A stretch of 64,000 nt of DNA from Candidatus Gastranaerophilales bacterium. Its GTDB lineage: Bacteria > Cyanobacteriota > Vampirovibrionia > Gastranaerophilales > Gastranaerophilaceae. The notes under the pieces are model-generated. The model did not search any database, had not been told where the DNA came from, and saw nothing but the letters and a program-made list of their open reading frames with translations. Made by a program: the position numbers and the translations under genes. The DNA is taken from the NCBI GenBank assembly GCA_947588745.1, contig CANPYW010000008.1:446-64445 (forward strand), in the 5' to 3' direction. Below are positions 31,101 through 62,065 of the stretch, in pieces; the stretch's first letter is position 1, and each line of letters starts with the position of its first letter.

Positions 31101-34016
31101 CCAATAATAATCTTTTTCTATTCTTCCCCAGGAATTATCAGTCCATACAATACCTGAATTATCATCAGGAATATCAGTCCTATTTTCATTTAAGCCTGAT
31201 ACAAAGGGAATATATTGAGCGTGAAAAGCGTAATCGGAATCACTGACACTCATGGAAATAACTCCGCTGCCTTCACCTTTGGCTATTTGTTTAGCGGCTT
31301 CTTTTATATCATATACCATGTGATAGGGTCGGCCTGTCATTTGCTCGAATATTCTTATTTGTTCATTTGATGTTAACCCCGTAGAACCTTCTTCTCTAAC
31401 CCAAAACTGACCGTTTAACATTCCGATATCTGAATATTGCTTATCCAATTCTTCTTTTAAGCCTTTATTCATTGCCTGATATTCCAATGTGCAATATTTC
31501 TTCATTTGCGGAATACTTTTTTCTATTTTATTCAAAATCGCTATTTCTTCATCAGAAAAGACATACAACTTTTTATCTGCCTTTTCTCGTTCTTTTACAC
31601 TCTTTATTTGAGAATTCTTCCGCTTTTGACTCTGGATATAATCAAATTTTGCCTGTAGAATATTCAATTGATTTCTTGTTAATATATTTCCGGCTTTTTC
31701 AAGTTTTTCGAGTATTAAAATTCTTGGTGAAGGAATTTGCCATTTTTCAACAATTTCTTCCTGCATAGAAGCGAGTTTTAAAAATTTATCTCTCTGATTG
31801 CTGACACCTTCCGCTATATTTTCTTCACCGCCGAATTGTTTCGAAAGGAAATCGTATGTTTCTTGTGTTATTCCGGTTTGAAGCGAATTTATGAATGTAT
31901 TTATGAATGATGAAGCGAAATGCATACTATCCTGATAGCCCAATAAACGAATTGCCTCGTTTCTTACCTGTTTAGAGGGTGAAAACTTAAGTTTAGTCTG
32001 CCACTTTTGTAATTCATCCAAAACCGACATTTTATCATTGCTAACATTAAGCATAGAAGCAATCGTTTGAATTTTATCGGATTTTCCGTCTTTTACAGTA
32101 TTATATACATTTTCATACATTTTTTCGGCTAATTGAGTAGTATCCATACCGTACAAGCTTTTTAATATATTATCAACCTGTGCAGGAATTTGTGTATCAA
32201 TTAAATACATATCTTTTATAACGGATTTAGAAAGATTTTCTGCTGTTTTATCCCCTTGAATATTATCAATAAAAAGATTTTGCATTACCTCAGACTTTGC
32301 ATTTCTTTCTATTGTTTGCAGATAATTTAGAATTTGAGTTTCTCTTTCTTTTAAGCCGGATATTTTCTCAAACCGGACTACACCATCTTGCATATTTACA
32401 TCGGCTTCCATGGCAAGCCTGTGTGCAGCTGCCAAATTATACAGCTTTTTATAATAATCAAACTTACCTCTGCCCGTATCAAACCTATGCAATTTTTTCA
32501 AATTTTTATCCAAAATTGTATACTCATCAACCATTCTATAAATTTTATCGGAATTTTGAGAGAGTACTTCGCTTTCTTTCGCCGTAATTTGAGGATTAAT
32601 ATCTTTTATATATTTTTCTAATCTTGACTGTTTCTGTGATACGGGAAGCTGCGACGGTACATTTACTTCATTATTATCTTTTGTACCCGAATAAAATTCG
32701 TAAAGCCCTTTTTCCAGTTTAATAATTTCCTTGTCAGATTTATTAGGGAATACTTCACATAACACATTTCTTAGCACAGCTGATATTTTTGACTGTGTTT
32801 CAATTGTATCTTTTTTTGCGTATATTATATTCAAATGAGCAGATTTAATCCTGTTTTGGGTCCTTTGTAAGGATAATAATGACTCTTTTTCCTTTATCAA
32901 TGCTTTTAACAAATCTTTTTCTTCATGAGTTTCAACATCTAAATTTTCATACCAGCTTGTATCATCATATATACCGTAACTATCTTTATCAAAAGCACTG
33001 TACCATTCGGTTTGAATAGTTCCATCCCCGCTTGCGTGTGCATTATGCATCCAGTTATGAGCCGAAGCATCAACTATTCTATAACCTTTTTCCAATGCGG
33101 TATCATAATCTATATCGGTTTTGGGGATACTAACCTTTTTCCCCGTACCCAATTCCGTTACGTCAAATACTTCCATAACAGGAGAATTTTTAAGTTCTTC
33201 CAATATTAAATTTACATAACCCGTTTTATCTTCATAAGCCATAGCTTTTCTGCATATTGATATGGCGGCACACATGCCCGAATATTTTTGGTCGATTTCC
33301 TTTGTTGTTAATATTTCACTTTCGGGAGATTTAACGAGCAAATCATTCAGCATTTCATCAAGAACCCGGGGTTTTTTATCCGAAAGCTGCGGATTAATTT
33401 TATAGTCATCACTTAATAAATACAAAAATTTTTCAAGACATTCCCGTTTTTGTTTAAAAGATATTTCGGATGAGGAGATAAAATAATCGAGATTTTTTCT
33501 TATATTTGCACTGATTATTAACGAATCAACATCTTCAACTGATGTTTCAGAACATATTTTATCGGTTAATTGACGTCTTAATTCTAATATTTGTTTTTGT
33601 TCATTGGTCAAAGGCTTCGAATTTAAAAATATCCGCTCGTATTCTTGTTCTAAATCTTCCGTTTTATCACACGAAGCATTCAAAGCTCTTTTAATAGTAT
33701 CCGCAAGTAATTTAGACCAATCAGTATTTTCTCTTTGGGTCGGTGTATTAGCATCTAAATCCAGAATTTTTTTAAATTCGGACTCTCCGTTCTGACCGTA
33801 AGTCAAATTATCAGCCAAATCAAGCAAAAACTCTATGCTTTTTCTGTCCGTTTGACTGCCGACATTATTTAATGCGGCGTATATATTTTGTTTATTGTTT
33901 TCAATTAAGGGTTTTTCACCGTTTTTTAACTGTGTAAGCGTATTTTTATCCGTTCTTAAACTTTTAAAGCTGAATTTATATCTGTTATCAGTATTAAGAT
34001 TGCTTTGTATTCTCAT
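28191..34016 (-). CDS. Giant orphan protein (~1,941 aa) with a split papain/PepC-like (C1-type) cysteine-peptidase signature and long helical regions
   Basis: ORF 34058 starts at TTG, and ATG 34016 has AAGGA 6 nt upstream (MRIQSNLNTDNRYKFSFKSL...). Uninterrupted 5.8-kb frame. DQKYSGMCAAIS (Cys at 33270-33272), YAFHAQYIPFV (His at 31221-31223) and VWTDNSWG...YGSGYGWKDGF (Asn at 31134-31136). No signal peptide or TM segment seen. Confidence 0.7.
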   Translation of the reverse strand: MRIQSNLNTDNRYKFSFKSLRTDKNTLTQLKNGEKPLIENNKQNIYAALNNVGSQTDRKSIEFLLDLADNLTYGQNGESEFKKILDLDANTPTQRENTDWSKLLADTIKRALNASCDKTEDLEQEYERIFLNSKPLTNEQKQILELRRQLTDKICSETSVEDVDSLIISANIRKNLDYFISSSEISFKQKRECLEKFLYLLSDDYKINPQLSDKKPRVLDEMLNDLLVKSPESEILTTKEIDQKYSGMCAAISICRKAMAYEDKTGYVNLILEELKNSPVMEVFDVTELGTGKKVSIPKTDIDYDTALEKGYRIVDASAHNWMHNAHASGDGTIQTEWYSAFDKDSYGIYDDTSWYENLDVETHEEKDLLKALIKEKESLLSLQRTQNRIKSAHLNIIYAKKDTIETQSKISAVLRNVLCEVFPNKSDKEIIKLEKGLYEFYSGTKDNNEVNVPSQLPVSQKQSRLEKYIKDINPQITAKESEVLSQNSDKIYRMVDEYTILDKNLKKLHRFDTGRGKFDYYKKLYNLAAAHRLAMEADVNMQDGVVRFEKISGLKERETQILNYLQTIERNAKSEVMQNLFIDNIQGDKTAENLSKSVIKDMYLIDTQIPAQVDNILKSLYGMDTTQLAEKMYENVYNTVKDGKSDKIQTIASMLNVSNDKMSVLDELQKWQTKLKFSPSKQVRNEAIRLLGYQDSMHFASSFINTFINSLQTGITQETYDFLSKQFGGEENIAEGVSNQRDKFLKLASMQEEIVEKWQIPSPRILILEKLEKAGNILTRNQLNILQAKFDYIQSQKRKNSQIKSVKEREKADKKLYVFSDEEIAILNKIEKSIPQMKKYCTLEYQAMNKGLKEELDKQYSDIGMLNGQFWVREEGSTGLTSNEQIRIFEQMTGRPYHMVYDIKEAAKQIAKGEGSGVISMSVSDSDYAFHAQYIPFVSGLNENRTDIPDDNSGIVWTDNSWGRIEKDYYWEDENGIEHTDYGSGYGWKDGFIIDDAYRIGLPLKDIAGAVGLHKENPVSKQDVPDETESFGLFTDVVLPGIPVDAYQKLYKMFNNICTMQGAERVYETLEEKLKSGSKLNLDLLVGIDETASAIEDEIYKRLDREIKTKEDYDKLDENDSLKFIMDKFALYMSTDNPAWADNVLSALTRDDLDKRYKEIQDEHINVLLTILGKSDDNIAVIEEAARPKFENLFNQLEKDLSIQIPKEDKEQLIKYIIYDEEGVFEVDGSISSMENFYLNKIAEGACDYLDDEKAARYFIPRAQKIIKEVFDNNIRISSLDSPLIDNSPLRDEFLSIIDKYFNPASDEEMLKVIQGLQEADDDTVDKLFDLLSDEEIGIHIKPAYDYILKYKEGNMDVIRELSSVITSGIIYSELNLSKDDDENETPDELFRTLLIRLSDLDVQKYIKAFKAEAFQKYQVRQAFPNPVVLKDEKIEDVVFSVFESLKEDVSNIKGGNYYINMFENYEDFERKTSNTELMKDINQNKNKLLKDENPEEIEQMKQSLQVLLDCIGEADDEFKGLIKAVNAIMHKLQNEDENTTCFELSKDIKAMRKIVSDWEKSSFTKERFIQVNKDTLNQIRYKIKLLVNTNVEEKYRNDVYNKLNKLVVLYKKDADEKVIKQLENEISENITDKHIVKNPVKLLVECVKDVQNGDIEKDDYQVRKTYLQEALQVALQTRVQYKLVQNQHESIGSKLKDMLEMFHVTLSDGRTLPMSDTVGLVYLVEQLKNSNDDNKTLNLFLQQSGLSQGALEALISTFDINQSKDFVDEKCKNIKLNLKEFKKVNDEITKYINSSKIKYKSFPEITEQLGKYMKRKFALKNNNIAKQYIDYLNSIQFEDTHYNIAPSMILTYFNAVNDDILQAILEENINVGIDYIDKLSQMLSDRMMLLYTIDVPNDSEVSKEREEFRQKYEDTQLYISQKFDDIKQTAYKNNVLAFK

Positions 34017-34176
34017 TATATATCCTTCTAATATCTCAAAGATATTAAAATCGGACAAGATAATTTTTGTTATGAAACAAATCTTTCAAGAACAAAATTT
34101 ACTTTAGTTAACATATTTAAAGAGATATCCTCACAAAAATACATTTATACAATCATCCGTAATACAATTATAAGTA

Positions 34177-36837
34177 ATGAGAAAAGTAAGACTTGTAATT
34201 TTAAAAGTGATACTTGCCGTAATAATTTTTATGGCGGTATTTTATGCTCTGTTTTTATATGCACTTCCTCCGGTTTTAAATTCATCAAAAGTAAGGTTTA
34301 AAGCGGAACGATTGTTAAAAGAAAAAACAAATCTTGATTTAATTACAAAACACTTATATTTTAGAACCCACCCCGACTTATCAATCAGTATTAATGCGGA
34401 TAAGATTTATTTGGAAAACAAGGATAAAAAACCGGTTTTTAAAACAGACAATATTTCGGCATATTTTAATCTGCCCGAGCTTAAATTCAAAAATATTTAT
34501 ACGGATTATGTATATCTTGATGAATTTGAATTAAAAAGCTTAATTAAAAGCAATCAAACTAAATCGCACAACAAAGTTTTTAATATTGATACATCATACA
34601 TTCCGAACATCATTATTAAAAATGCGGAAATTTGGATTGACAAAGAAAGCATTAACAGCATCTTTATCGTAATTGATGACTTTAACATTATTAAAGCAAA
34701 ACACATGAAAGTATATTGTACATTTAAAGCCGACATTATATCGGCTATGCTGAAAAATCTTATACACATAGGCGACGGCGGTTGTTTATATATCGAAAAC
34801 AATAATATTTATGCAAAAGACCTCAAAATTAAAGTAGGATATCCCGATATCAAAATAAACGGACTTATTTCTAACAAAAATAGGGAAAACGATTTTACGA
34901 TAAAAGGAGATAATCTTCCCGTTAATGATATCGAATCATCACTGCTTTACTTTTTAAAATTAAGAAAAAAAGGAAAACAGTTCCTTGAAAATTTCAAAGA
35001 TTTTAACGGAAATATAGATATAAATTTAAACGTTAAAAATTGGGGTTTTTACGGAATGTGTTTTGCGGATGATTTAGAGGCAAAATCCGTTTTGTTTGAT
35101 GTTCCAGTTAAGTTTAAAAAAGTATTTTTTAAATTTAATAACAGAGAAGTAACTTCTAAAGCAATAGGCACTCTTGGCGGCGAAAAAGTGTTTAATACCT
35201 TTAAAATGACTGATATGGCAACGGATTTACAGGAAGTAACGGGGCATATTAATTCGTTTATAACAAACAAACTTGCTTCCGAATATCTCGATAATTCATC
35301 CGTAACGGGAGGCATGGATGCTTCGGTGGATTACAGAGTTAAAGACCATAAAATTTATGTTGATTATATGTTAAACATAAAAAAAGGCTCGGCATTTATT
35401 TATAAAAAATCATTTATAGGTATAACGAATAAAGACAGAAGAATTTTGGTTAAAACATTAAAAGACAATGATGAATTATATATCAGGCACTATGATTATT
35501 CAACGATAGAAAACAACAAAGTAAAAAACATAGTTCTCGGCACCGGATTGTTTAAGAAAAAAGACAATCATTTCACACCCGAATATATAACCTGTGCCAC
35601 CAACGGATTTGTTCCCGTTACCATAGCGGGTTCGTTCGGACAGGTTATAGACGGCGGGGTTTTCAGCGGTGATATTAAATATATTTTTAAGAAAAATCTT
35701 GTAACGGGTAATTTTACGGTAAAAGATACCGCATATAAAAACTTTTATGTTAATACCGCAAAAATTTTAGCAGATGAGAACAAAATCCGCATTGAAGCAA
35801 ACGGTGATTTTAAAAATTCGCCTTATGAATGTACGTTTGATGCAAAAAACGATATTACCGACAAAATACACATATATAATATGTATCTTATGCTCGAAGA
35901 ATACATTATAAATCCCGCTTTAAGCAAAAAAACCAAAATCAGCAAAAAAGTCGTAAACAAAATAAAAAACAAAGCAAAAGAACTGGATATCACAATTGAT
36001 AAATGGACGGTTAAAATTAACAAAATTCAAAGAAACAAGTTTGAATTGAAAAATATTATGCTTACGGGAAGTTTAAAAAACAATGTTTTCAAATTTTTAA
36101 TGCCGCATACGGAATTTTCAGACGGAATTCTTTGTGCTAACGGGGTTTATAACATAAATAATCTTTCATCCGAAATAAACTTTTCGGCACATAAAATAAA
36201 TTCAAATAAAGCTGCGGATATATTCTTCAATTTAAAAGACCAAATCGAAGGTATTGCGGACGCTTCTTTAAACTTAAAATCAAACAACAATTTTAAAGAT
36301 ATACAAGGGCTTATAACTTTTAAAGTGGAACAGGGTTATCTGCCAAAATTAGGAAGCACCGAATTTATCATAAAAAAATCAAAAAAAATAAAAAGAGAAT
36401 TGAAATTTAAAATTTCGGACATAATTAACATCGATATTAAAAATATGAAAGCATTGGCTTCCGATATTAACGGCAGTCTTTATATAGATAACGCAGAAAT
36501 TAAAGATATAGAAATCACATCACGTCAAAAATATTTATCTTTGCTTATAGAGGGCGATTATAATGCCGACAGTTGCGAAGCCGATTTGAATTTATACGGT
36601 AAATACAGCAATAAAGCACAGAAAAAAATAAAAATATTATTCATTCCGTTATCCTGGATTGTCAATATAATATTTAAACCCGAACATACGTTTGATAAAT
36701 ATATAAATGAAATTAATCGCATTCCGTCCATCCAAGCACAACAAAACGATGAAAACACTTTCAGGGTTAAACTTAAAGGTAACCTGAATTCCGACAACAT
36801 TGACGTTGAATTAAAAAGAATTATCAAAAATCATTAA
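34177..36837 (+). CDS. AsmA-family protein (TamB/AsmA-like envelope protein), paralogue 1
   Basis: 886 aa. Single N-terminal TM anchor (VILAVIIFMAVFYALFLYAL), a long beta-rich body and an AsmA_2-like C-terminus (DINGSLYIDNAEIKDIEITSRQKYLSLLIEGDYN...ADLNLYGKY). Both termini are clearly paralogous to 38864..41653. Confidence 0.6.
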   Translation: MRKVRLVILKVILAVIIFMAVFYALFLYALPPVLNSSKVRFKAERLLKEKTNLDLITKHLYFRTHPDLSISINADKIYLENKDKKPVFKTDNISAYFNLPELKFKNIYTDYVYLDEFELKSLIKSNQTKSHNKVFNIDTSYIPNIIIKNAEIWIDKESINSIFIVIDDFNIIKAKHMKVYCTFKADIISAMLKNLIHIGDGGCLYIENNNIYAKDLKIKVGYPDIKINGLISNKNRENDFTIKGDNLPVNDIESSLLYFLKLRKKGKQFLENFKDFNGNIDINLNVKNWGFYGMCFADDLEAKSVLFDVPVKFKKVFFKFNNREVTSKAIGTLGGEKVFNTFKMTDMATDLQEVTGHINSFITNKLASEYLDNSSVTGGMDASVDYRVKDHKIYVDYMLNIKKGSAFIYKKSFIGITNKDRRILVKTLKDNDELYIRHYDYSTIENNKVKNIVLGTGLFKKKDNHFTPEYITCATNGFVPVTIAGSFGQVIDGGVFSGDIKYIFKKNLVTGNFTVKDTAYKNFYVNTAKILADENKIRIEANGDFKNSPYECTFDAKNDITDKIHIYNMYLMLEEYIINPALSKKTKISKKVVNKIKNKAKELDITIDKWTVKINKIQRNKFELKNIMLTGSLKNNVFKFLMPHTEFSDGILCANGVYNINNLSSEINFSAHKINSNKAADIFFNLKDQIEGIADASLNLKSNNNFKDIQGLITFKVEQGYLPKLGSTEFIIKKSKKIKRELKFKISDIINIDIKNMKALASDINGSLYIDNAEIKDIEITSRQKYLSLLIEGDYNADSCEADLNLYGKYSNKAQKKIKILFIPLSWIVNIIFKPEHTFDKYINEINRIPSIQAQQNDENTFRVKLKGNLNSDNIDVELKRIIKNH

Positions 36838-36924
36838 GAATTATTAAACCGATTTAAAAATAATCGGAAAATTTAAGCCGACAAAATACTTTATATTATT
36901 AAAACATTTGGGAGGAAATAATAT

Positions 36925-37938
36925 ATGAATGATAATTTAGGCTTTAATCCGGTTAGTATAAATAAGGTTTATCAGACGGAAGGAGTAAAGTTACCCCAAA
37001 AAGCCAAAACTGAGCCGGTAACAGATACGGTTGAAATTACAAAACAAAAAAGCGGCAAAAGTAAAAGAAATAAAATTTTGGCAGGATTAGCAATTGCCAC
37101 AACGGCACTTGTTATAGGTATATCGGTTTACAAAAAGAAAAAAGCATTAAACAGTATTCCTCCCGAATTAAAAGAACTGTTTAATTCTCTTAAAGAGAAA
37201 TCGGGAAAAGAATATATTGATGATGCATATTCGGGTCTTGTTAAACACATGGGGCTTGACGATATAGCACCGAAAAGCGTTAATTTAACCGACAATGCCG
37301 ATGGAATCTTTTCCATCACAGGAGGATATAATCCGCTTGAGAATACGATTGAATATTCGAAAGGTTTTTCAAAACGCCTTAATAAAGAACAGCAATTCAA
37401 CATGTTAAGTCATGAACTGACTCACTGCAAGCAATTCACACAAGTTATAAGGACCGAAGGACTCGGTGTTGAAGCACTTGCGGAAGGCATAGCGGGAAAT
37501 GCCACAAAAAAAGACGTGTTTGGGCAGGACAGAGTAAGCGTTCTTGCGGAAACTTTAGGGGAAGAAGGAGCAAAGGAAATATTAAAAGAGCAAAAAGAAA
37601 AATTAATAAAAGAAATTCTCCCGAAATTAAAAGAAGCTCACGAAAAAGCATTATCATTACCAAAATTTGCGGCCGATTCGCCGGAGGGTATACAGGCAAA
37701 AAAATACATTGAAGCATATAAAGACTATGAAGGACTCGGTTTATTGGGGTTCGGAAGCGATAAATACAGAAGTAATTTATTGGAAGAAGAAGCTTATAAA
37801 TACGGTTCGAAAATGGAAAAATTATTTAACACTTATACTTTAAACCAACCGTCAAAATTATATACACGTGCAAAAGATTCCATACAAAGATTAAAAGACT
37901 CGCTATCAAAAAAACATATCAGCCAAGCTGCAAACTAA
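36925..37938 (+). CDS. Membrane-anchored HExxH protein (putative Zn-metallopeptidase, DUF4157-like motif)
   Basis: 337 aa. SD GGGAGG. Polar N-terminus, a single TM (ILAGLAIATTALVIGISVY), then ...GGYNPLENTIEYSKGF...FNMLSHELTHCKQF (HELTH at 37411-37425) with downstream Glu-rich segments. Confidence 0.5.
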   Translation: MNDNLGFNPVSINKVYQTEGVKLPQKAKTEPVTDTVEITKQKSGKSKRNKILAGLAIATTALVIGISVYKKKKALNSIPPELKELFNSLKEKSGKEYIDDAYSGLVKHMGLDDIAPKSVNLTDNADGIFSITGGYNPLENTIEYSKGFSKRLNKEQQFNMLSHELTHCKQFTQVIRTEGLGVEALAEGIAGNATKKDVFGQDRVSVLAETLGEEGAKEILKEQKEKLIKEILPKLKEAHEKALSLPKFAADSPEGIQAKKYIEAYKDYEGLGLLGFGSDKYRSNLLEEEAYKYGSKMEKLFNTYTLNQPSKLYTRAKDSIQRLKDSLSKKHISQAAN

Positions 37939-37968
37939 CATATAAAATATAATCTCAACCGGAACGAT

Positions 37969-38838
37969 TTATTTCTTCTTGTGTTTGAGGTTATTTCTCA
38001 AATCGATAAAAGGCCCGTTGTACGGATTTCGAACATATCTGTAGTAGTTTCTCGCATAAGTAAACGGATATTTCGGAAGCCAGCTGAATTTCAACAAAAT
38101 AGATACGGTTTCCGCACCTTGAGAAAACATTAACTGGTCAATTGTTTCTTCATGTGCCGGTGATATGGATGAAATTAACTTAACTAAATAATCGGTAAAA
38201 GTAATAACGGAATATCCGGACATTACCCCCGTATTAACAACCAAATCCGATATTCTGAACTTTGATGTATCATCAAGCTCCGTTAAATCTTTTGATAAAG
38301 AAAGTGTTTCTTTGGAAATATTTTCTATTTCAAACCATTCACCCATATATTGTAATCTCATCAGGTTTGGTTTAGGCATATATATATCTTCATATTCATT
38401 TTCAAGAATAATATTTCCCTTAAAGTCGGCTACACCGTATTTATAATTATCATAAGTTAAAAGCATTCCGCCGAAAAGCAATTCAATGGCATCATATACG
38501 GGAGGCAATATCGTTTCGCCCGTTTCGTCATACATTCCGTAATCACCGTAATTGCCTAATTTTGCGTATTTCCCCAGCACTCTTTCCGCATGCCTGTATT
38601 TTAGCGGCACAAGCACGTTACCGCACAAATCAACAATTCCGTATTTATTCTTTTTTTGAACGAGGTAAGATTTATCGCCCAAGCGGATTATTTTTGAATA
38701 AATCGGTTGTATTACGACATTTTGATTTTCATCTTTAACTCCAAACTTTTTATCCTCGGAAAAAACAGTATCTTGTGCAAAAGATGAATTTTGAAATATT
38801 AAAAATATAAAACAAACAATATATAAAAACTTTTTCAT
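37969..38838 (-). CDS. Secreted WG-repeat (KWG / WG_beta_rep) protein
   Basis: 289 aa. Signal peptide ...FQNSSFA|QD. Repeats KFGVKDENQNVVIQPIYSKI, KYGIVDLCGNVLVPLKYRH, YGMYDETGETILPPVYDAI and KYGVADFKGNIILENEYEDI. Confidence 0.7.
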   Translation of the reverse strand: MKKFLYIVCFIFLIFQNSSFAQDTVFSEDKKFGVKDENQNVVIQPIYSKIIRLGDKSYLVQKKNKYGIVDLCGNVLVPLKYRHAERVLGKYAKLGNYGDYGMYDETGETILPPVYDAIELLFGGMLLTYDNYKYGVADFKGNIILENEYEDIYMPKPNLMRLQYMGEWFEIENISKETLSLSKDLTELDDTSKFRISDLVVNTGVMSGYSVITFTDYLVKLISSISPAHEETIDQLMFSQGAETVSILLKFSWLPKYPFTYARNYYRYVRNPYNGPFIDLRNNLKHKKK

Positions 38839-38863
38839 GATTTAATTATATCATGGAGATATT

Positions 38864-41653
38864 ATGTTTAGATTAGTTGTTAAAATATTATTATGTGCTG
38901 TAATTATATCCATATTTGCAGTTTGTGCCGCAACAATCGGATATTTAAAAATATTACCAAAAGTTGTCGAAAACAATAAAGTAATTAATAAAGCCGAACA
39001 ACTTGCAAATAAATACACTGATTTAGATTTGGAGATAAAATCGCCCAAACTTGTAACAAGTTTATCACCCGTTATCGAATTTTCCGTCGGCACTTTAAAA
39101 ATGAGCAAGGATAATAATCTCCTTCTTGATTTGGAAAACATTGAAACTTCAATTTCATTTAAAGAAATTTTTCAAAAAAAGATTATTATAAATAAACTTG
39201 GTGCGGATAAAATTTATGCCGACATAAACAAAGTTATAAACGCTTTTTCAAAAGAAGATAATGAAGAACCGATAAAATCGGATTGGATAATTGACTTTTA
39301 CAATTCGATTTTATTCATAAACGACAGCCATATTATATATAAACCCGATAAAAATACAAAAATACGGCTTAAAGCTTCAGGTATCAAACTTGATAATACA
39401 ATAAGCGATAACAAACACCTTCATTTTAATTTGGATGCAAATATTTCGAATGCAACAAGCAATGTTGATATTGCATTTAATGACGAAAATAAGGTCATTG
39501 TGAATGATGACCATATATCAATAAAAGATTGTCCATTTATTATCAATAAATCAAAAATGTTTTTTGATGCAATAATCAATCAGGATAATACATTTAATGT
39601 TGAAGTATATGCGAATAAATTTTTTATTCCCGACGTTATAAAACTTTTACAAACAAATATTGTGCCCAACAACATTAATGACATACTTTTATACTTAAAA
39701 GACATAAAAGGTGATTTTGATTTCAGAGTAAAGATTACCGATAAATCCTTAACCGGAAACGTGAATATTAACAAATGTTCTTCTTTACTTGTACCGCTAG
39801 CGGATATGCCCGTTGCCATTTCCGGCGGAAATATTATAATCAAAGAAAAAGATATCGATTTAAAGAATTTTAAGGGTTATTACGCTAATAAAAAGAGCAA
39901 TGAAATTTCTTTTGACGGAAAAGTTAAAGACTATATGAAAACCGCCGAAACAAATATTGATATGAAAGCCCGACTCACAAGTGACTTTGTAGACAAATAT
40001 TTGTCAAAAACGGCAAAGTTAAAACTGGCATTAAAAGGAAGCTCAAATGCTTTAATTCTTATTCATACACTGGGAACCAACGTTGATGTATCTTTAATGG
40101 GTAAAATAGCCAAAGGATATGATATTCTTGCAGAAGGTGCATCGTTTAGCCCCATAAACTATGACAGAGCTTTAAGAGCGGATATTCACGTTAAAGGCGA
40201 TAATCTTAATATTGAAGAAATAAAATATTTTATCGGAAAAGAGCTTAATAAAGACTCTAAAGGGAAAGTTAAACCTATTTTAACATTGGACGGGAACATA
40301 AGAATTTCGGACGGCAAAATTTTGGATTTGGGCTTTGACGTAAAAAATCCGCTGCCGAGTGAATTTTTAAATATATTAATAAGTCAAAAATTATTCAGAG
40401 GCGGTAAATTTTCGGGTTATTTGAAAATGCTCAACGCAAAAGGCGACTATCCCAAAATAAAAGGTAATATTATTGCCGATAAAATAGGTATTCCGAGCCA
40501 AAGATTATTCCTTAATCATGGTGAATTTTCAACCGATAAAGAAGAACTTCACGTTAATGCGGACGGTAAATACAGAAGATGCCATTATACATTTAACGGA
40601 AATGTCTTAAACGAAATTAAATTTCCGATTGTTATAACATCAACAAATCTTACAATTGATGACGTAAATATAGAAAAAGTTATGAAATCACTTTCAAAAC
40701 CGCCAAAACCCGTTGAGAAAATAAGTAATGTTTATGTGGAAGAAGCAGCTTTGGAAGATAACGAAAGCGATGAAAGTGATGAAGAACCGTTTGAGTTTGA
40801 TTTTGATAATATCATTGTTCAAAATGCGGTTGTGAAAATATTAAAAGGCGAATATAAAGACATTAAATTTTCAAATGTTATCGCAAATATGTCATTAAAA
40901 GAAAGTATTTTCAAATTAAAATCGAACAGGTTTGAAATAGCCGACGGACACTCATCTGCCGATATTAACTGTGATTTAAAAAAACAGAAATACGATGTTA
41001 AATTGGGAATTAAAGATGTTAATTCGGATATCATGTCCACAACTATTTTAAATCTTCCCAAAGAAATTTCGGGCAAAGCAAGCGGATTAATTCATTTATA
41101 TACGGATGCTTCACTAAAACTTAACGGTAATATTAAATTCGCAATAAAAGACGGTACAATACAAAAAATCGGACTGGTCGAATATGTACTTAAATTTGCC
41201 GCACTTTTCAGAAATCCTTTTGCAATGATTAGTCCCTCCGTATTTGCGGATTTGGTTAATATCCCGGAAGGAAATTTTGATAAAATTACCGGTGATTTAA
41301 TAATGAAAGACAATGTAATACAGCTTATGAAAATAAAATCCTATTCACCTTATCTTAGTGCGTTTATAATCGGCAGCTATAACCTTGAAAATTGCGATGC
41401 CATTTTAAGAATTTATACTAAATTCACAAATAAAAAGAAAGGCTTTGCGGGATTTTTAAGATATATTTCACTAAGCAGCCTTGCAAACAGAATTCCTTTA
41501 AACAGCAGAAATGACAGCAACTATTATGAAGCCGAATTATCCCAGCTTCCGGATATTGAAGCCGACGAGAAAGACTGTCAGGTATTCTTAACCAAAGTTG
41601 ACGGAGATATCGAACATAACAACTTTATATCTTCTCTAAAGAAAATAAAATAA
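38864..41653 (+). CDS. AsmA-family protein, paralogue 2
   Basis: 929 aa. SD GGAG. N-terminal TM anchor (ILLCAVIISIFAVCAATIGYL). N-terminus LPKVVENNKVINKAEQLANKYTDLDLEIK parallels LPPVLNSSKVRFKAERLLKEKTNLDLITK of paralogue 1. C-terminus KITGDLIMKDNVIQLMKIKSYSPYLSAFIIGSYNLENCDAILRIYTKF. Confidence 0.6.
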   Translation: MFRLVVKILLCAVIISIFAVCAATIGYLKILPKVVENNKVINKAEQLANKYTDLDLEIKSPKLVTSLSPVIEFSVGTLKMSKDNNLLLDLENIETSISFKEIFQKKIIINKLGADKIYADINKVINAFSKEDNEEPIKSDWIIDFYNSILFINDSHIIYKPDKNTKIRLKASGIKLDNTISDNKHLHFNLDANISNATSNVDIAFNDENKVIVNDDHISIKDCPFIINKSKMFFDAIINQDNTFNVEVYANKFFIPDVIKLLQTNIVPNNINDILLYLKDIKGDFDFRVKITDKSLTGNVNINKCSSLLVPLADMPVAISGGNIIIKEKDIDLKNFKGYYANKKSNEISFDGKVKDYMKTAETNIDMKARLTSDFVDKYLSKTAKLKLALKGSSNALILIHTLGTNVDVSLMGKIAKGYDILAEGASFSPINYDRALRADIHVKGDNLNIEEIKYFIGKELNKDSKGKVKPILTLDGNIRISDGKILDLGFDVKNPLPSEFLNILISQKLFRGGKFSGYLKMLNAKGDYPKIKGNIIADKIGIPSQRLFLNHGEFSTDKEELHVNADGKYRRCHYTFNGNVLNEIKFPIVITSTNLTIDDVNIEKVMKSLSKPPKPVEKISNVYVEEAALEDNESDESDEEPFEFDFDNIIVQNAVVKILKGEYKDIKFSNVIANMSLKESIFKLKSNRFEIADGHSSADINCDLKKQKYDVKLGIKDVNSDIMSTTILNLPKEISGKASGLIHLYTDASLKLNGNIKFAIKDGTIQKIGLVEYVLKFAALFRNPFAMISPSVFADLVNIPEGNFDKITGDLIMKDNVIQLMKIKSYSPYLSAFIIGSYNLENCDAILRIYTKFTNKKKGFAGFLRYISLSSLANRIPLNSRNDSNYYEAELSQLPDIEADEKDCQVFLTKVDGDIEHNNFISSLKKIK

Positions 41654-41657
41654 GCGG

Positions 41658-41909: not shown

Positions 41910-42047
41910 TCCTAACCCTATTTATACATACAGGACTATAGACCAAAATTTAAAATAAAACATTATATTAAAGTATTAATCGGTTTATCTGATGTTTTCT
42001 TTTGTAAATTTTTAAATAATATATGAAGATATCAAAAAGGAGAATGT

Positions 42048-42599: not shown

Positions 42600-42627
42600 A
42601 AAAACACACAATTTCAATACCTCTAAT

Positions 42628-50101: not shown

Positions 50102-50124
50102 AAAAAAGAGGAAAAAATACAACG

Positions 50125-51456: not shown

Positions 51457-51468
51457 AACATAAATCCC

Positions 51469-51542
51469 TTAACAGATTACTCTATAAGTAAATACTATCA
51501 CAGATTATTTTTTTTGTATACAAATCAACTGTTTAACAGATT
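51469..51542. promoter_or_regulatory. Exact 10-bp direct repeat TTAACAGATT (x2) plus a third ACAGATT copy in the divergent intergenic region
   Basis: TTAACAGATT at 51469-51478 and 51533-51542, and ACAGATT again at 51500-51506. Located between the CoA-transferase A start and the P-loop/TPR gene start. Confidence 0.3.
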
Positions 51543-51566
51543 TCAAAACGGGCATAATATAATAAT

Positions 51567-54104
51567 ATGACGAATATGAATTATAATTTTATAAAAGATA
51601 TCTATACACCCATTGCACAAGGATTAAACTCGGATGTTTCAATTCTTAACAGTTTTATTGAGGAAAAAGAAAATCGTTTTATTTTAAAACATAATATTTA
51701 TGCCGTATCTCAAATAATAAACTTTCTAAATTCGCCGGAAAATAACATTTTTATTCTCAACGGATTTATGGGTTCAGGTAAAACATCCGTCACAAATTTT
51801 ATTCTTGATTTTGTAAATGAAGATGTTTTAATATTCAAAAATGAATACAAAGATGCAATTAATCTTGATGATGTACTGCTTTCTTTGTTTAAAGATTTTT
51901 CAGTATATCATAATGAAGGCAAAATAATTTTACCGAAAGCAGAAACATCAATCTTTTCGGAAAAAATTAATGCATACATAAAATACTGCAATATTCCGAT
52001 GTTATTCATTTTTGACTCTTTTGAAATAAATACAAAAAGCAAAGACTCGCAAAAAGATATACTTGATTTTATAAATTATTTATCGAGATTTGAAAAGGTT
52101 AAAATTATAATTTCATCAAGAAGCTTTAAGCAAGAGGATTTATATAATTATGACTCAACATTTTCTTATACTTTAAGCGGCATAACAAAAGAAGAAATGT
52201 ATGATTATCTTGAAAATAACAAGGTTGAAAGCAGCAATTATATAACAGAAGACCTCTATAAAGAAACAAGAGGGCATTATCTTTTACTTGAATATTCAAT
52301 ATTAATCATAAAATTGTTAAATATATCCTTAACCAGTTTTTCGACGGAATACAAAAAATCAACCAAAAATTTTCTGGAATTTGTAGTTTCAAAAATGCTC
52401 TCACTTTCAGCCGAAAGATTTCTAAAACCGCTAATTTTATTAACCGCAGTAAGACATGGTTTGAGTGAAAAATTTATTATTGAACAAAATTTTGCTACTG
52501 AAGATGAGTTATCTTTTTTGAAACAGAAACATATAATATCGGAAAAATACGGTAAATATTACATAAAAGAGTATATCAAACACGAATTCATCAAATCTAT
52601 CAATATTGAAACTCAAATAAAAATACATAATTATTTGCTTGAAGTATATGAATCCGAATTGCCTTTAAAACCGTTTGAAAGAAATTTATTCTTATCAAGA
52701 CTTACAATGCGACAGGAAATTGCCTACCATACAAAAAAAATCGAAAGCCTTGAAGAAGAACTTACAAGAACAGGAAAAACCGCTGTATTAGGAAGCAACG
52801 AGCTTTCTTATATGACATACAGCAGAACTAGCGGATACAACAATCAAAACGACAAACAACCGCAAAAAAAACGCTATATTGATAAACTAAGAAATAAATC
52901 GGAAAAGAATAAAAGATTTCAACTTACAAACGAGGACTCGCTTATCTTAAATTCAATATCTGCCGCTGATGCAGTAACTAAAGAATTTGAAACCATTGTA
53001 AATGAAGAAGATATAAAAGAGAACTACGAAAGCAATATAGCTGATATTGTTCCGAATTCATTAAATGAATATATCGATATAGCTCAAAATTATGAAAATG
53101 CGTTTAATTTTTCTAAAGCAATCGTATACTACAAACAAGCTTTAACATACTCAGATGATGAAAATTTCAATATAAAAGAACCAATAATATATACTAAATT
53201 GGCAATATGTTATAAAAAAATACAAGATATTGAACAGGCAATACAATATTATGAAAAAGTATATGAAATCTATTTCAATTTGAAATCGGAAAAAGCAAAT
53301 GATACTTTATTAAGCATTGCGGAAATTTACACCGAAAGCTATAAATTCGACAAAGCAAAAGAAATCTATAACAAAATTTTATATTCGCCCATAACAGCAA
53401 GAGAAGAACTAAAAGGACGTATATACCTTGATATGGCTGAAATAGAAGACAACAGTCTTAACCCGAAAGAAGCTGCAAAATATATTCAAAAAGCACTTAT
53501 AATAGCGGAAAAAAGCTCTGATATTAAATTAATTTCGGAATGTTACTTTAAATATGCACTGTTATTAGACGATAACGATGATATAGATTTGGCACAAAAG
53601 TATTATCTAAGATGTATACAATCATCAGATAACCCTGAAAATAATACATATCTTGCATCCGCATATTCAAATTTAGCTGAAATTTCATTAGAAAAGAGCA
53701 ATATTAACTCAGCAAAAATGTATTATGAATTATCTATAGAAGCAGATAAAAAAATAAATAACTATGAAGGGTTATACTATTCTTATACAAAGCTTTCAGA
53801 TATATACAAACACGAAGATAATGAAAAAGCCTATGATTATCTGGTAAAGGCATTATCTGCGTCAAAACGTTTTGACGATATAAACTATTCTGTTACAATA
53901 TATCTTAAAATAGGAAACTGGTACGAATCTAAAAATAATTACAAAAAAGCTTTAAAAGCTTATATTCTCGCAAAAAAATTAAATCCTTCTCAAATAAATT
54001 CAGATAAACTCAGAAATATCAACATCTCTATAAACAAAATAAAACATACAATCGGAGAATTTGAATTTTCCAGATTATTAAACGAAATAAAGAAACAAGT
54101 ATAA
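51567..54104 (+). CDS. STAND-like P-loop NTPase with C-terminal TPR array
   Basis: 845 aa. Walker A GFMGSGKTS (51762-51788), Walker B-like MLFIFDSFE, and a C-terminal ~330 aa of TPR-like repeats (YENAFNFSKAIVYYKQALTY..., YTKLAICYKKIQDIEQAIQYYEKVYEIY...). Confidence 0.6.
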   Translation: MTNMNYNFIKDIYTPIAQGLNSDVSILNSFIEEKENRFILKHNIYAVSQIINFLNSPENNIFILNGFMGSGKTSVTNFILDFVNEDVLIFKNEYKDAINLDDVLLSLFKDFSVYHNEGKIILPKAETSIFSEKINAYIKYCNIPMLFIFDSFEINTKSKDSQKDILDFINYLSRFEKVKIIISSRSFKQEDLYNYDSTFSYTLSGITKEEMYDYLENNKVESSNYITEDLYKETRGHYLLLEYSILIIKLLNISLTSFSTEYKKSTKNFLEFVVSKMLSLSAERFLKPLILLTAVRHGLSEKFIIEQNFATEDELSFLKQKHIISEKYGKYYIKEYIKHEFIKSINIETQIKIHNYLLEVYESELPLKPFERNLFLSRLTMRQEIAYHTKKIESLEEELTRTGKTAVLGSNELSYMTYSRTSGYNNQNDKQPQKKRYIDKLRNKSEKNKRFQLTNEDSLILNSISAADAVTKEFETIVNEEDIKENYESNIADIVPNSLNEYIDIAQNYENAFNFSKAIVYYKQALTYSDDENFNIKEPIIYTKLAICYKKIQDIEQAIQYYEKVYEIYFNLKSEKANDTLLSIAEIYTESYKFDKAKEIYNKILYSPITAREELKGRIYLDMAEIEDNSLNPKEAAKYIQKALIIAEKSSDIKLISECYFKYALLLDDNDDIDLAQKYYLRCIQSSDNPENNTYLASAYSNLAEISLEKSNINSAKMYYELSIEADKKINNYEGLYYSYTKLSDIYKHEDNEKAYDYLVKALSASKRFDDINYSVTIYLKIGNWYESKNNYKKALKAYILAKKLNPSQINSDKLRNINISINKIKHTIGEFEFSRLLNEIKKQV

Positions 54105-54105
54105 T

Positions 54106-54807
54106 ATGCAATTAATAGATTTAAACATTGATTTAGATAATATCAAAACAGAAAAATTTAAAAACTATATAAAATTTTTTTCTGAATATAATGAAAAAAT
54201 TAATCTAATTAGTAAAAATGATATAAATTTAATATTTCAAAAACATATTTTCGACAGCTTATCAATAAATTTATTTTTTGAAAAATATTTAAAAAAAAAT
54301 ACGAAATTGAATATTATAGATATAGGTACGGGAGGCGGTTTTCCCTCTGTACCACTTGCTATTAATTATCCCGAATTTAAAATTACGGCAATAGACTCAA
54401 TCAATAAAAAAATTAACTTTTTAAAACTTGTAAAAGAGGAATTTGACCTTCAAAATTTTTATCCGCAATCCTGCAGAATAGAAAATTTACCGGCAAATAT
54501 GCGTCGAAATTTTGATATAGCAACCGCAAGAGCATTAGCTGAACTTAAAATTCTGCTTGAATACTCAATTCCCTACGTTAAAACGGGAGGCTATTTCATA
54601 GCATATAAATCTAAAAAAGCAGATGAAGAACTTAAAAATGCACAAAATGCATTAAAGATTTTAAACACAAAATTAATTGATAAAATAGAATATAAATTAC
54701 CATTAAGCGAAGAAAATAACAGAGTTTTATTGGTTTTCAAAAAAATGAAAAATACTGACAACAAATACCCCAGAACGAATAATTTAATAAAAAATTCTCC
54801 TTTATAG
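54106..54807 (+). CDS. rsmG: 16S rRNA (guanine527-N7)-methyltransferase
   Basis: 233 aa. HIFDSL, IIDIGTGGGFPSVPLAI and ARALA. Starts 1 nt after the preceding stop. Confidence 0.88.
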   Translation: MQLIDLNIDLDNIKTEKFKNYIKFFSEYNEKINLISKNDINLIFQKHIFDSLSINLFFEKYLKKNTKLNIIDIGTGGGFPSVPLAINYPEFKITAIDSINKKINFLKLVKEEFDLQNFYPQSCRIENLPANMRRNFDIATARALAELKILLEYSIPYVKTGGYFIAYKSKKADEELKNAQNALKILNTKLIDKIEYKLPLSEENNRVLLVFKKMKNTDNKYPRTNNLIKNSPL

Positions 54808-54918
54808 TTTTTTTAGCAAAATTAAATTATAATAAGAATTCTAATACATCAAAAGCAACACATATAACACAACATAATAATTTTTTATTATGCTATACTT
54901 TTTCTAAAAGGAGTTAAT

Positions 54919-55545
54919 ATGGAACTAAAAAATTATGTAACAGGGCCGCTTAAAGTAAATACTTATGTGTTAAAAGATGATATTTCAAAAGAAGCTATAA
55001 TTATAGATTTAGGAGGTTCCTTCAGTCAAATAAAGAATGAGCTGGATAAAGAAGGATATAAAATTAAATTTATATTAAACACACATGGCCACTTTGACCA
55101 TATACTGGGAGAAATCGAAGTGCAAAAAAACTTTCCAGAAATTCCGATATTAATTAATAAATCAGACAGTATTCATTATAACAACATGCATAACGAATTA
55201 AAGATGTGGGGGTTTAACATCGAAACTAACATTTTAACTCCAACAGATTATATTGATGAAAATTCAAAAATTACAATCGGAGATAAAGAAATTAAAATTT
55301 TTGAAACGCCGGGACACTCAAAAGGAAGCCTGAGTTTCTATATCGATAATAAACTTTTCTCAGGAGATACACTATTTCTTATGTCCATAGGCAGAACCGA
55401 TTTCGTTGACGGTGATTACGAAGCAATAATATCATCCATAAAAGAAAAATTATTTACACTTCCTGATGAAACAAAGGTATATCCCGGACACGGGCCATCA
55501 ACAACAATATTAAATGAGAAACAAAAAAACACTTATTTACGCTAA
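54919..55545 (+). CDS. MBL-fold metallo-hydrolase (glyoxalase II-like)
   Basis: 208 aa. SD AAGGAG. LNTHGHFDH, TPGHSKGS, SGDTLF and PGHG. Confidence 0.85.
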   Translation: MELKNYVTGPLKVNTYVLKDDISKEAIIIDLGGSFSQIKNELDKEGYKIKFILNTHGHFDHILGEIEVQKNFPEIPILINKSDSIHYNNMHNELKMWGFNIETNILTPTDYIDENSKITIGDKEIKIFETPGHSKGSLSFYIDNKLFSGDTLFLMSIGRTDFVDGDYEAIISSIKEKLFTLPDETKVYPGHGPSTTILNEKQKNTYLR

Positions 55546-55549
55546 ATAA

Positions 55550-55675
55550 TTATAAAATTTCATAAACCGGCGTATTTCCATTTAAATAATCTTGTAAGCC
55601 TTTAATTACATCATCTTTAAATGAAAGTAAAAACATTCCTAAATTGACGGCTAAGTTTTGATTTTTTTCGTCCAT
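55550..55675 (-). CDS. Speculative 41-aa small ORF
   Basis: Found by eye and below the ORF-track cutoff: MDEKNQNLAVNLGMFLLSFKDDVIKGLQDYLNGNTPVYEIL, with AGGA 8 nt upstream. There is no other support. Confidence 0.15.
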   Translation of the reverse strand: MDEKNQNLAVNLGMFLLSFKDDVIKGLQDYLNGNTPVYEIL

Positions 55676-55920
55676 AAAAAATCCTTTAAATATATACATA
55701 ATATATATCGTAAGATAAAAGAAAAAACTTTAGTACAAATAATAAAGTTTAATTTTTTTGTAACAAAAATATAAAAAAACTCCTATAAAAAGAGTAAAAG
55801 GTGTGAAATTAATTTCAAATGTGAATTAAAATTTCAACCAAAAGAATGATATTTGTATTGAACAAATATGATAATCTAAATGTACAAAAAAGAGGAATGT
55901 AGAAAATAGAAAGGGCTGTT

Positions 55921-56421
55921 ATGCAAATAGGAAAACTAAATTTACAAAGGACAAATACAGTACAAAACACAACTGCACAGAAAAAAGGCAACACAAATAA
56001 ATTAACGACAAATCCGTTTGGAGTAAGCTTCAAAGGAAATGTTATTCAAGCTGATGTGTTTGTAAACGAGAAGGTAAATAAAGATAAAAATTCAAATGGA
56101 ATAGTGGAGAAAAGCAAACTATTTGCAAGTGCGGTAGTAAGTGGCATTAACAACTTTAATGAATCATTCAAATCAAGAATAAATTCAATTGTATCGTTCG
56201 GTAAAAAAATAACAACAGATGTTTGTGATTCTTTAGAAAGAATAGGAAATACAGAAATTTCATTCGATATGGAAGGAATAAAAAATAAACTATTCCCTGA
56301 CAGACAATACAGTGTTAAAAACTTATCAAAACAGCCGGTAGAAGATTTAAAAACAATGTGGCAGGAATTAACACCGGAAGAAACTGAAAACGAAACAGAA
56401 ACAGAAGAAAATGCAGCATAA
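55921..56421 (+). CDS. Hypothetical protein (166 aa) with polar N-terminus ...NPFGVSFKG and acidic TE-rich tail
   Basis: SD-like AAAGGG upstream. The frame is Lys/Asn/Glu-rich and consistent with local codon usage. The antisense ORF 56046..56540 looks like a shadow. Confidence 0.45.
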   Translation: MQIGKLNLQRTNTVQNTTAQKKGNTNKLTTNPFGVSFKGNVIQADVFVNEKVNKDKNSNGIVEKSKLFASAVVSGINNFNESFKSRINSIVSFGKKITTDVCDSLERIGNTEISFDMEGIKNKLFPDRQYSVKNLSKQPVEDLKTMWQELTPEETENETETEENAA

Positions 56422-56437
56422 GAGTGGGAGATAAAAA

Positions 56438-56806
56438 ATGGAAGACAGCAAAAAAATAAAGAATATAATACAAGCATTAGGGGAACATCAAGATTCAAAA
56501 GCTGCCATAGAAGTATTAACAGAGCTTGGAACGAATTCACCTGATGATGAAATCAGAGAAATGACCGCACAAACTTTAATTAAAAAGAATACTCATGAAT
56601 CATTAAGAGTTGTGCTAATTTCAAAAGGAAAAGGCATAAACGATTTAAGTGCAAGAGTTGCAATGGCTTCAATAAATGAATTATTATCATTAAAAGATAA
56701 AACAGAAGCTATTAAAATATTAGATGATACAATTAAACTTCATTCTGATGAAGAAGTTAGAAATACAGCCCGCTCAGTAAGAGCATTGATGACATTTTCA
56801 GCATAA
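56438..56806 (+). CDS. Hypothetical HEAT-repeat-like protein (122 aa)
   Basis: SD GGGAG. Two helical repeats ending in DDEIREMTAQTLIK and DEEVRNTARSVRAL, a HEAT/PBS-lyase-type pattern. Confidence 0.45.
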   Translation: MEDSKKIKNIIQALGEHQDSKAAIEVLTELGTNSPDDEIREMTAQTLIKKNTHESLRVVLISKGKGINDLSARVAMASINELLSLKDKTEAIKILDDTIKLHSDEEVRNTARSVRALMTFSA

Positions 56807-56840
56807 AATTATTATCCTAAATTGTTAGGTTTTTATATAA

Positions 56841-56866
56841 AAAAGCTCCACTCGTTGGAGCTTTTT
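56841..56866 (+). terminator. Rho-independent terminator
   Basis: AAAAGCTCCA-CTCGT-TGGAGCTTTTT, a 10-bp stem plus T-run. Confidence 0.7.
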
Positions 56867-56910
56867 AGCATGTGAATTATTTGTAAATTTTTGTAAATAG
56901 GAAAATACGT

Positions 56911-56940
56911 TTGAAAAAATCATCTTAGAAGTTCTATAAT
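56911..56940 (+). promoter_or_regulatory. Candidate sigma70 promoter for the 73-aa ORF / proB-proA unit
   Basis: TTGAAA-N18-TATAAT, ending 18 nt before the ATG at 56959 (SD GGAGG in between). Confidence 0.45.
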
Positions 56941-56958
56941 AGAATTTGGAGGTAAAAA

Positions 56959-57180
56959 ATGGATAATAACTTTAACAATGAAAAACTACAGCAAAAAATT
57001 ACTCAACTAAACATCAACATCAAAACAATTGAATGCATAATCAGATACATTGATAACGAATTTAATAACAAACTTTCATACAAGCATAATGATATTTCAA
57101 ATCTGATTGGAATTCTTATTTACTTAATTAATGACTACAAACAAAAACTTTATAAATTTGATAACTCTTTTAAATTATAA
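56959..57180 (+). CDS. Hypothetical small helical protein (73 aa)
   Basis: Strong SD (GGAGGT) with 7-nt spacing. Asn/Ile/Lys-rich sequence with no motif. Confidence 0.35.
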   Translation: MDNNFNNEKLQQKITQLNINIKTIECIIRYIDNEFNNKLSYKHNDISNLIGILIYLINDYKQKLYKFDNSFKL

Positions 57181-57203
57181 TATTTTTTATTATAATTTTA
57201 TCT

Positions 57204-62065: not shown

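Follow-up and report, generated by a model that had tools for sequence, protein, structure and literature searches.

The stretch of DNA analysed here, referred to below as the window, is 64,000 nucleotides long (C8:446-64445) and belongs to a metagenome-assembled genome of Gastranaerophilales of 2.0 Mb (the source genome, G000; 32% GC, 63 contigs, 94% complete). The Gastranaerophilales are non-photosynthetic relatives of cyanobacteria (Melainabacteria/Vampirovibrionia). They are widespread, uncultured gut bacteria, and their biology is known from genomes only. Four proteins of the window were described in the initial annotation as unrelated orphans sharing a polar N-terminus that ends in a [VF]-S-[FI]-[KNG] motif, and a targeting role was suggested for it. 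This N-terminal peptide, called the tag in what follows, consists of a head at the initiator methionine, a polar spacer and a short tail. The four N-termini are confirmed, in position as well as in sequence, and are listed here with the proteins that bear them.

33960-34016, minus strand: tag of the giant protein, residues 1-19, MRIQSNLNTDNRYKFSFKS, with head MRIQ, a 10-residue spacer and tail FSFKS (residues 15-19, 33974-33960)
28191-34016, minus strand: giant orphan protein of 1941 residues, which carries the tag and has no Pfam domain
36925-36966, plus strand: degenerate tag of the HExxH membrane protein, MNDNLGFNPVSINK, with a head-like start kept and the tail Phe lost; VSINK at 36952-36966
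36925-37938, plus strand: HExxH protein of 337 residues, with the tag region, one transmembrane helix and a putative metallopeptidase domain (sub-threshold BSP and DUF6782 matches)
55921-56040, plus strand: tag of the 166-residue protein, residues 1-40, with head MQIGKLNL, an Asn/Thr/Gln/Lys-rich spacer and tail NPFGVSFKGN; VSFKG at 56023-56037
55921-56421, plus strand: orphan protein of 166 residues, which carries the tag
61856-62065, minus strand: tag of the 760-residue nucleoside triphosphate (NTP)-transferase, residues 1-70, with head MIGKIDAG, a long spacer and tail KSVSFGQ; VSFGQ at 61870-61856
59783-62065, minus strand: protein of 760 residues with a weak NTP_transferase domain (PF00483) and an N-terminal extension of roughly 300 residues

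About 1,800 genes were called genome-wide by a simple longest-open-reading-frame procedure, which puts several start codons too far upstream by a small number of residues. For the corrected ATG starts, GGAG-like Shine-Dalgarno sites lie 5-10 nt upstream, and homologues from other metagenomes start at the same Met. Wrong start codons are thus ruled out as an explanation for the likeness of these N-termini.

The orthologues of the four proteins give the clearest view of what is conserved. The 166-residue protein occurs in every one of the 24 other genomes of the genus covered by the search, and part of the remaining families of the order have it too. Its orthologous loci come from the gut of rabbit, deer, sheep and chicken and are assigned to 'Candidatus Gastranaerophilales' or 'Candidatus Avigastranaerophilus'. 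Over 49 loci, that of the window included, the head MQIGK[IL]SLH and the tail NPFGVSFKGNV[IL]QADVF are near-invariant: M1 and N31-V41 do not vary at all, and I3, G4, K5 and L8 of the head are conserved at 90% or more. The spacer between them, of 15-25 residues, is variable in both sequence and length. A similar layout is seen in 118 distinct N-termini of the giant protein family (M[RK]IN, 5-12 variable residues, then x-F-K-[SG]) and in 81 of the NTP-transferase family, where MIQKIGAG is followed by a variable stretch, by xSFxG or QFKG, and then by KTVSFG[QK]SL. The first of these two tails, found as xSFxG near residue 40 in the homologues, has decayed in the window copy. A fixed head and tail around a hypervariable spacer are thus observed for three of the four window proteins. 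The HExxH family keeps its head M-x-[IV]-N-S-V throughout and shows a phi-SF[GKST] tail in many distant members; since neither the window copy nor its nearest orthologues retain the tail Phe, the fourth example is only a degenerate, decayed tag. Directly downstream of the 166-residue open reading frame, starting 17 nt after it, lies the gene for a 122-residue HEAT-repeat protein (56438-56806, plus strand), which may be a partner protein.

Beyond the window, the tag is a genome-wide feature: about 25-40 otherwise unrelated proteins of the source genome begin with the same two-part N-terminal peptide. The pattern first proposed for its tail, [VF]S[FI][KNG], occurs within the first 70 residues of 47 proteins, compared with 29.9 +/- 5.6 in composition-preserving shuffled N-termini (maximum 44), which is beyond chance by a modest amount. 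The excess becomes sharp with [VI]SF[GK], present in the first 70 residues of 34 proteins, for 9.4 +/- 3.1 in the shuffles (maximum 18, 200 shuffles) and 6.8 expected from the rate in the rest of the proteins. Four control patterns with permuted residue order stay flat (11-18, for about 10 expected), and VSF comes first among the non-hydrophobic 3-mers enriched in N-termini in an unbiased k-mer test (55 vs 89, odds ratio 3.0, p = 1e-9). A leave-one-out position matrix returns 32 N-terminal matches at a strict threshold and 61 at a looser one, with 7.2 and 28.7 expected from internal windows, hence the estimate of about 25-40 tagged proteins. The motif of the initial annotation is therefore a real tail whose core is better written phi-[S/N]-F-[G/K]. 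Its carriers do have unrelated folds, as had been stated; they are far more than four, and orphans are not their only kind.

The head was characterised as M-x-[I/V] within an Asn/Gln/Ser-rich, acid-poor stretch devoid of hydrophobic core. When proteins are picked by the tail alone (tail at residue 10 or later), position 3 is I, V or L in 50% of them, against 22% of the others (p = 0.002), and 50% have an NQST-rich start, against 8% (p = 1e-7). The residues preceding the tail are enriched in N (2.6x), Q (2.0x), S and P (both 1.5x), and depleted in D/E (0.27x) and L (0.59x), as well as in F, M and W. The spacer is disordered, Asn/Gln/Ser/Thr/Lys-rich and acid-poor, and its length varies from 0 to 60 residues, the position of the tail being bimodal (residues 4-16 or 28-65). 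Typical examples are MKVSPISFG, MNISPISFGK, MKISAVNRQVSFGR and MQVNKVNLTVPNRGKIQKQNNNDNKKAKENSQNKVSFKGG. The tail codons are synonymously diverse, with Ser encoded by both TCN and AGY, so that selection acts at the protein level, on the peptide (purifying), and a motif at the nucleotide level is ruled out.

Could such a pattern arise without any specific function, from AT-rich codon bias at gene starts combined with chance, or from a copied N-terminal module left to drift? At 32% GC, Asn/Lys/Ile-rich starts are indeed to be expected, the loose pattern exceeds its shuffles only modestly, and some pattern matches, such as those in ABC ATPases, are clearly due to chance. This account does not explain why shuffling, permutation and internal windows all give much lower counts, nor why head and tail stay near-invariant in 49 to 118 orthologues beside a hypervariable spacer. 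It also has to face the synonymous diversity of the tail codons, and the recovery of the tag in other genomes by a matrix trained on the source genome only (see below). Orthologues, shuffles, internal windows and other genomes taken together largely refute it, and it is regarded as very improbable.

The tag does not correspond to the classical N-terminal signals. In a set of 25 tags, the 10-15-residue hydrophobic region of Sec signals is absent (maximal 10-residue Kyte-Doolittle mean with a median of 0.51 and a highest value of 1.30), and the RR pair of twin-arginine (Tat) signals is found in none; the initial annotation was right to set both pathways aside. A GG pair after the tail, as in the double-glycine leaders of peptidase-C39 ABC exporters, is seen in one tag out of 25. 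Prp-type processing does not apply either, as L27 has a canonical N-terminus, without cleavable extension. None of 10 tag peptides has an NCBIfam match at E <= 1, no Pfam match covers the N-termini of the tagged proteins scanned, and literature searches returned no described motif or Melainabacteria secretion signal of relevance. These results also bear on the idea of a regulatory element, namely a degron or a protease-processing site controlling stability or maturation. A short, disordered N-terminal stretch conserved at few residues would suit that role, and the tagged and untagged paralogue pairs described below could reflect differential turnover. However, a cleavage site after the tail is not marked by any conserved residue, the double-glycine count is as low as just given, and the canonical L27 leaves no Prp-type system to invoke. 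A degron does not need a conserved head and tail joined by a spacer of free length, and no dedicated protease was found adjoining the tagged genes. A regulatory role is thus considered improbable.

The identity of the carriers is informative. Two 4-alpha-glucanotransferases of family GH77 (MalQ) are tagged, one at C7:44047-45900 and the other on contig C11, where it starts MITKIQQSNKQLNFGRAF. One CBM48 + GH13 enzyme and the NTP-transferase of the window are tagged as well. For both MalQ and the GH13 enzyme, the genome encodes untagged paralogues too, which means that the tag marks a second set of enzymes; GlgA is untagged. An UshA-like 5'-nucleotidase (Metallophos + 5_nucleotid_C, C35:14905-16551) starts MNIISNIIKTPSFKG directly before its catalytic domain: it has no signal peptide, and its 15-residue tag occupies the usual place of one. 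An HNH protein, an AAA ATPase and an SNF2 helicase are tagged too, as are several small membrane proteins and, in degenerate form, the HExxH protein. Orphans are numerous among the carriers, with some of 972, 1215 and 1941 residues. Two tagged orphans have Pfam matches to toxin-type domains that stay below threshold: the one at C28:18036-20297 to a lethal-factor-type metalloprotease (E = 5e-4), the one at C43:471-1313 to an ADP-ribosyltransferase exoenzyme (E = 2.5e-4). Neither match is strong enough for a function to be assigned.

Which machinery could recognise such a peptide? Several specialised secretion systems have no counterpart in the source genome at its 94% completeness: no contractile sheath of phage or extracellular contractile injection systems and no TssC (no PF04984 or PF05943 match), no VirB4-type ATPase of type IV secretion systems (no PF03135 match), and no injectisome (needle, translocon, dedicated secretin) or CesT-type chaperone were identified. 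What is encoded is a flagellar-type machine without filament, a type III secretion system (T3SS) designated T3SS-B. A cluster on contig C2 (~83.6-94 kb) contains intact FliI, FlhA, FliH, FliF and FliE, an SLT lytic transglycosylase, FlgC, FlgB and two FlgF/G-like genes. Contig C7 (~56-60 kb) provides a FliM/N-like gene, FliO, FliP, a 165-residue FliQ, an open reading frame of 118 residues with a signal peptide, and FliR. FlhB, which keeps its NPTH motif, is encoded at C3:111026-112051 and adjoins a putative sigma-factor gene (assigned by eye). Flagellin, FlgI and FlgH have no match in the same genome, and hook, junction, cap and P/L-ring genes are not detectable there. The axial C-terminal domain is present in three of its proteins only, FlgC and the two FlgF/G-like ones. 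In this gene set (L078:14943-15796, contig C7), FliQ bears a polar C-terminal extension of roughly 90 residues, and the 118-residue open reading frame between fliQ and fliR has no Pfam match.

FlhA is present in all 121 genomes of the order, whereas flagellin is found in 40 of them, and in only 7 of the 86 genomes of the window's own family, so that the machine is under long-term selection independent of motility. The FlhA bit scores form two classes, and a maximum-likelihood tree of 23 FlhA sequences separates clades A and B with 100/100 support, 1.5 substitutions per site apart. Clade B is retained in all 121 genomes of the order. Flagellated genomes hold both; G000 and G091, a genome of another genus, hold only B. 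In the flagellated genome G038, from another family, the clade-B gene lies in its own rod-FliE-FliF-FliH-FlhA-FliI cluster, apart from the hook genes. The A + B pairing spans most families of the class. The retention of a subset of flagellar genes in non-flagellated members has been reported, with guesses at a secretion role (PMC4040986; preprint 10.64898/2026.04.24.720558); there, the subset was not treated as a separate paralogous machine, and no cargo or signal was described. A soluble protein of 483 residues, encoded outside the window at C3:86904-88355, combines an N-terminal domain of no known kind with the FlhA cytoplasmic (FHIPEP C-terminal) domain and has no membrane part. It may act as a free substrate-docking platform. 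An extra partial-FHIPEP match in every listed genome of the order suggests a similar soluble protein there, and in G038 the gene for a soluble FlhA_C-like protein adjoins fliJ, a fliK-like gene, flgD and flgE.

The early flagellar export signal combines a hydrophobic N-terminal part with a Phe-containing gate-recognition motif (GRM), which docks on FlhB_C, and GSTNAS repeats can stand in for the spacer between them (Bryant et al. 2022, PMC8983047). The spacing needed in Salmonella is 19 or more residues. Such early, rod/hook-type substrates are, e.g., Salmonella FlgD and FlgE in the account given by PMC8983047 and, as cited there, by Evans et al. 2013. The reading proposed here as the most likely, to which a probability of about 45% is given, is that the tag could be a lineage-specific, bipartite, early-substrate-like N-terminal export signal for T3SS-B. 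On the cytoplasmic side of the gate, the short tail strand would dock the protein onto FlhB_C or a FlhA_C-type platform; entry would then be triggered by the small non-polar residues at the very N-terminus, and the spacer would serve only as a sequence-independent tether. With no hook or filament to build, the machine would stay in its early mode and export tagged proteins instead. The switch to late substrates would never come in a machine that stops at the rod, whose natural cargo would be proteins with early-type signals. This cargo would consist of a 5'-nucleotidase and enzymes active on starch or glycogen, next to many orphans and to proteins resembling proteases, ADP-ribosyltransferases and nucleases.

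Several lines of evidence favour this reading. The tag is real, tied to the N-terminus and bipartite, keeps its head and tail in three families, and is seen again in two other genomes of the order. The two-part architecture matches that of early flagellar subunits (Bryant et al. 2022), and the composition fits the rules of type III signals. The flagellar-type gate is intact and retained independently of motility, whereas searches for further specialised secretion systems gave none. In G038, the gene lying immediately upstream of the rod genes of T3SS-B begins MKINPNINTT, and its homologue in the source genome MSNINFGQFF. The nucleotidase has swapped its signal peptide for a tag, and the tagged MalQ and GH13 copies stand beside untagged paralogues. 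Precedents also exist, with the glycogen enzymes of Chlamydia and the toxin export of Lysobacter discussed below. The initial annotation, with its suggestion of a recognition tag that serves export, localisation or assembly, is partly supported: the peptide is conserved, non-Sec, non-Tat and borne by unrelated folds, and its link to T3SS-B is reached by elimination and resemblance.

Other observations weigh against an export signal for T3SS-B. The Phe of the tail is fixed, but the strict GRM pattern F-x-x-x-phi is not enriched, phi being found at F+4 in 12 of 25 tags for a background of 42%. Phe occurs before residue 20 in 13 of the 25, and the tail lies 4-16 residues from Met1 in half of them. 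The T3SS-B rod proteins reach only the top 12-20% when scored with the tag matrix (FlgB has DVSFSQ and FliE APSFKS), so that the tail bears only a weak direct likeness to the GRM region in these proteins. The tagged genes are scattered and do not cluster with those of T3SS-B. General co-localisation was rejected, with only single near cases: a tagged gene of 648 residues lies 2 kb from fliR in the source genome, and in G038 the rod cluster has one at a distance of 1 kb. Finally, no sigma-28-type promoter (CCGATA-type) is present upstream of 26 tagged genes, which rules out a sigma-28 regulon for them. About ten near-consensus promoters of this type (TAAAGTTT-N11-12-CCGATA[AT]) do occur in the source genome, 20-60 nt upstream of untagged orphan genes (e.g. 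C6:35027-37610, C18:221-1505, C3:52833-53811 and C14:8841-9402), and putatively define a separate regulon, distinct from the tagged set.

The distribution of the tag counts on both sides. Samples of 400 kb from other genomes were scored with a matrix trained on the source genome only. Within the order, 7 matches were obtained in G091 for 2.5 expected, and 15 in G038 for 7.3 expected. The check by co-occurrence with a secretion gene, as advised in the initial annotation, is uninformative at this level, since T3SS-B is present in all 121 genomes. Outside the order, its outcome is discordant with G148, which has FlhA A and B and shows no tag enrichment in its sample. In G159, likewise from outside the order, 5 matches for 1.9 expected (C1:400001-800000) are a hint only; the starts found there read M-x-I-T/S, a polar stretch and [VT]-x-F-G, e.g. 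MLITSVSPSLAHSSKK...HVTFGN, which suggests a diverged form of the tag outside the Gastranaerophilales. T3SS-B, which most of the class has, reaches further than the tag.

The main alternative is that the tag docks onto another partner, either an unrecognised exporter or an intracellular hub or scaffold, for instance an assembly that is polar or membrane-associated, or a body of the glycogen-granule type. The phi-S-F strand would then add onto a beta sheet of this partner, and the proteins would be localised rather than secreted. A place in the periplasm or medium would make little sense for the carriers that need NTPs (NTP-transferase, AAA ATPase, SNF2 helicase), which also speaks against export; together with the HNH protein, they fit the cytoplasm. 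In several carriers, transmembrane helices after the tag would leave it on the cytoplasmic side, and three or four carriers act on alpha-glucans. In the absence of P/L ring, hook or dedicated secretin among the genes found, T3SS-B has no evident path through the outer membrane, a further point against export, and its range exceeds that of the tag, as just described. The AlphaFold2 model of the 166-residue protein, although poor (predicted local distance difference test, pLDDT, 54; predicted template-modelling score, pTM, 0.18), shows residues 1-34 as coil and VSFK/VIQA as a small beta hairpin, in keeping with a docking element. On the other side, no candidate hub was identified and GlgA is untagged; the toxin-like carriers and the 5'-nucleotidase, with its tag in the place of a signal peptide, are misfits in a glycogen body; and the composition rules of the tag are those of type III signals. 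A docking peptide for such a partner is thus held to be somewhat unlikely, and it is the alternative that has to be taken most seriously.

A more ambitious form of the export reading would see in the tag the cargo code of an independently evolved, flagellum-derived secretion system, delivering about 40 enzymes and toxin-like proteins out of the cell or into another cell. This is rather doubtful at present. If true, a flagellar paralogue would have become an effector exporter for a second time, the injectisome being the other case; its cargo would include a relocated alpha-glucan module, and gut Gastranaerophilales would interact directly with host, prey or neighbour cells. More generally, a consensus tag would be unusual for type III systems, whose signals are normally devoid of consensus. 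Being recognisable, it would let candidate cargo be listed for each genome from sequence alone, and would point to proteins possibly presented to the surroundings, namely a nucleotidase, enzymes acting on glucans, and proteins that resemble proteases, ADP-ribosyltransferases and nucleases. It would also offer a simple handle for reporter-fusion and binding experiments, and cells with two flagellar-type gates would be a natural system for asking how substrates are told apart.

Short conserved N-terminal motifs on unrelated proteins are known from MIX, FIX and RIX, which mark polymorphic effectors of type VI secretion systems. The tag is similar in this respect, but the motif sequences are unrelated and the source genome has no type VI or sheath genes. 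Injectisome effectors reportedly carry N-terminal signals with a conserved chaperone-binding beta-motif, as in the Hop rules of P. syringae and the Shigella Spa15-type chaperone-binding sequences. The tag shares with them an aliphatic residue at position 3/4, few acidic residues, a Ser/Gln/Asn-rich composition over the first 50 residues and a short strand common to unrelated proteins. In contrast, T3SS-B has flagellar rod proteins, and neither an injectisome nor a CesT-type chaperone was identified beside it.

In Chlamydia trachomatis, glycogen enzymes bear type III secretion signals (Gehre et al. 2016, PMC4829429). The parallel lies in starch/glycogen enzymes (MalQ and a GlgB-like enzyme) that bear a non-Sec N-terminal signal beside effector-like proteins. 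Chlamydia has a single copy of each enzyme and does not secrete GlgC, whereas in the source genome it is extra paralogues that are tagged, together with a GlgC-like NTP-transferase, and GlgA is left out. Moreover, no intracellular lifestyle is known for Gastranaerophilales. The reuse of a flagellar gate has other precedents. In Lysobacter enzymogenes OH11, which has no flagellum, a leftover flagellar T3SS exports toxins, and fliI and flhB are needed for these non-flagellar toxic enzymes to be exported (PMC7688988), and the basal bodies of Buchnera aphidicola are a filament-less flagellar T3SS used, or proposed to be used, as a protein exporter (PMC8109811). As in these two bacteria, flagellin has been lost while the genes for gate, ATPase and basal body were kept. 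Their machines are remnants of a single ancestral flagellum with hook genes kept, whereas T3SS-B is a deep paralogue (clade B) that stands beside a full flagellum in relatives; and no conserved cargo motif has been described for them.

The closest comparison is with the early flagellar substrates. The tag differs from them in its tail, phi-[S/N]-F-[G/K] and not F-x-x-x-phi, which in half of the tags comes too soon after Met1 for the Salmonella spacing, and its carriers are non-flagellar enzymes and orphans. The likeness extends to the small non-polar residues in the first positions (I/V/L at position 3), to the polar, unstructured and apparently sequence-independent spacer with a short Phe motif downstream, to the lack of cleavage and of a chaperone, and to the flagellar-type gate that the source genome encodes.

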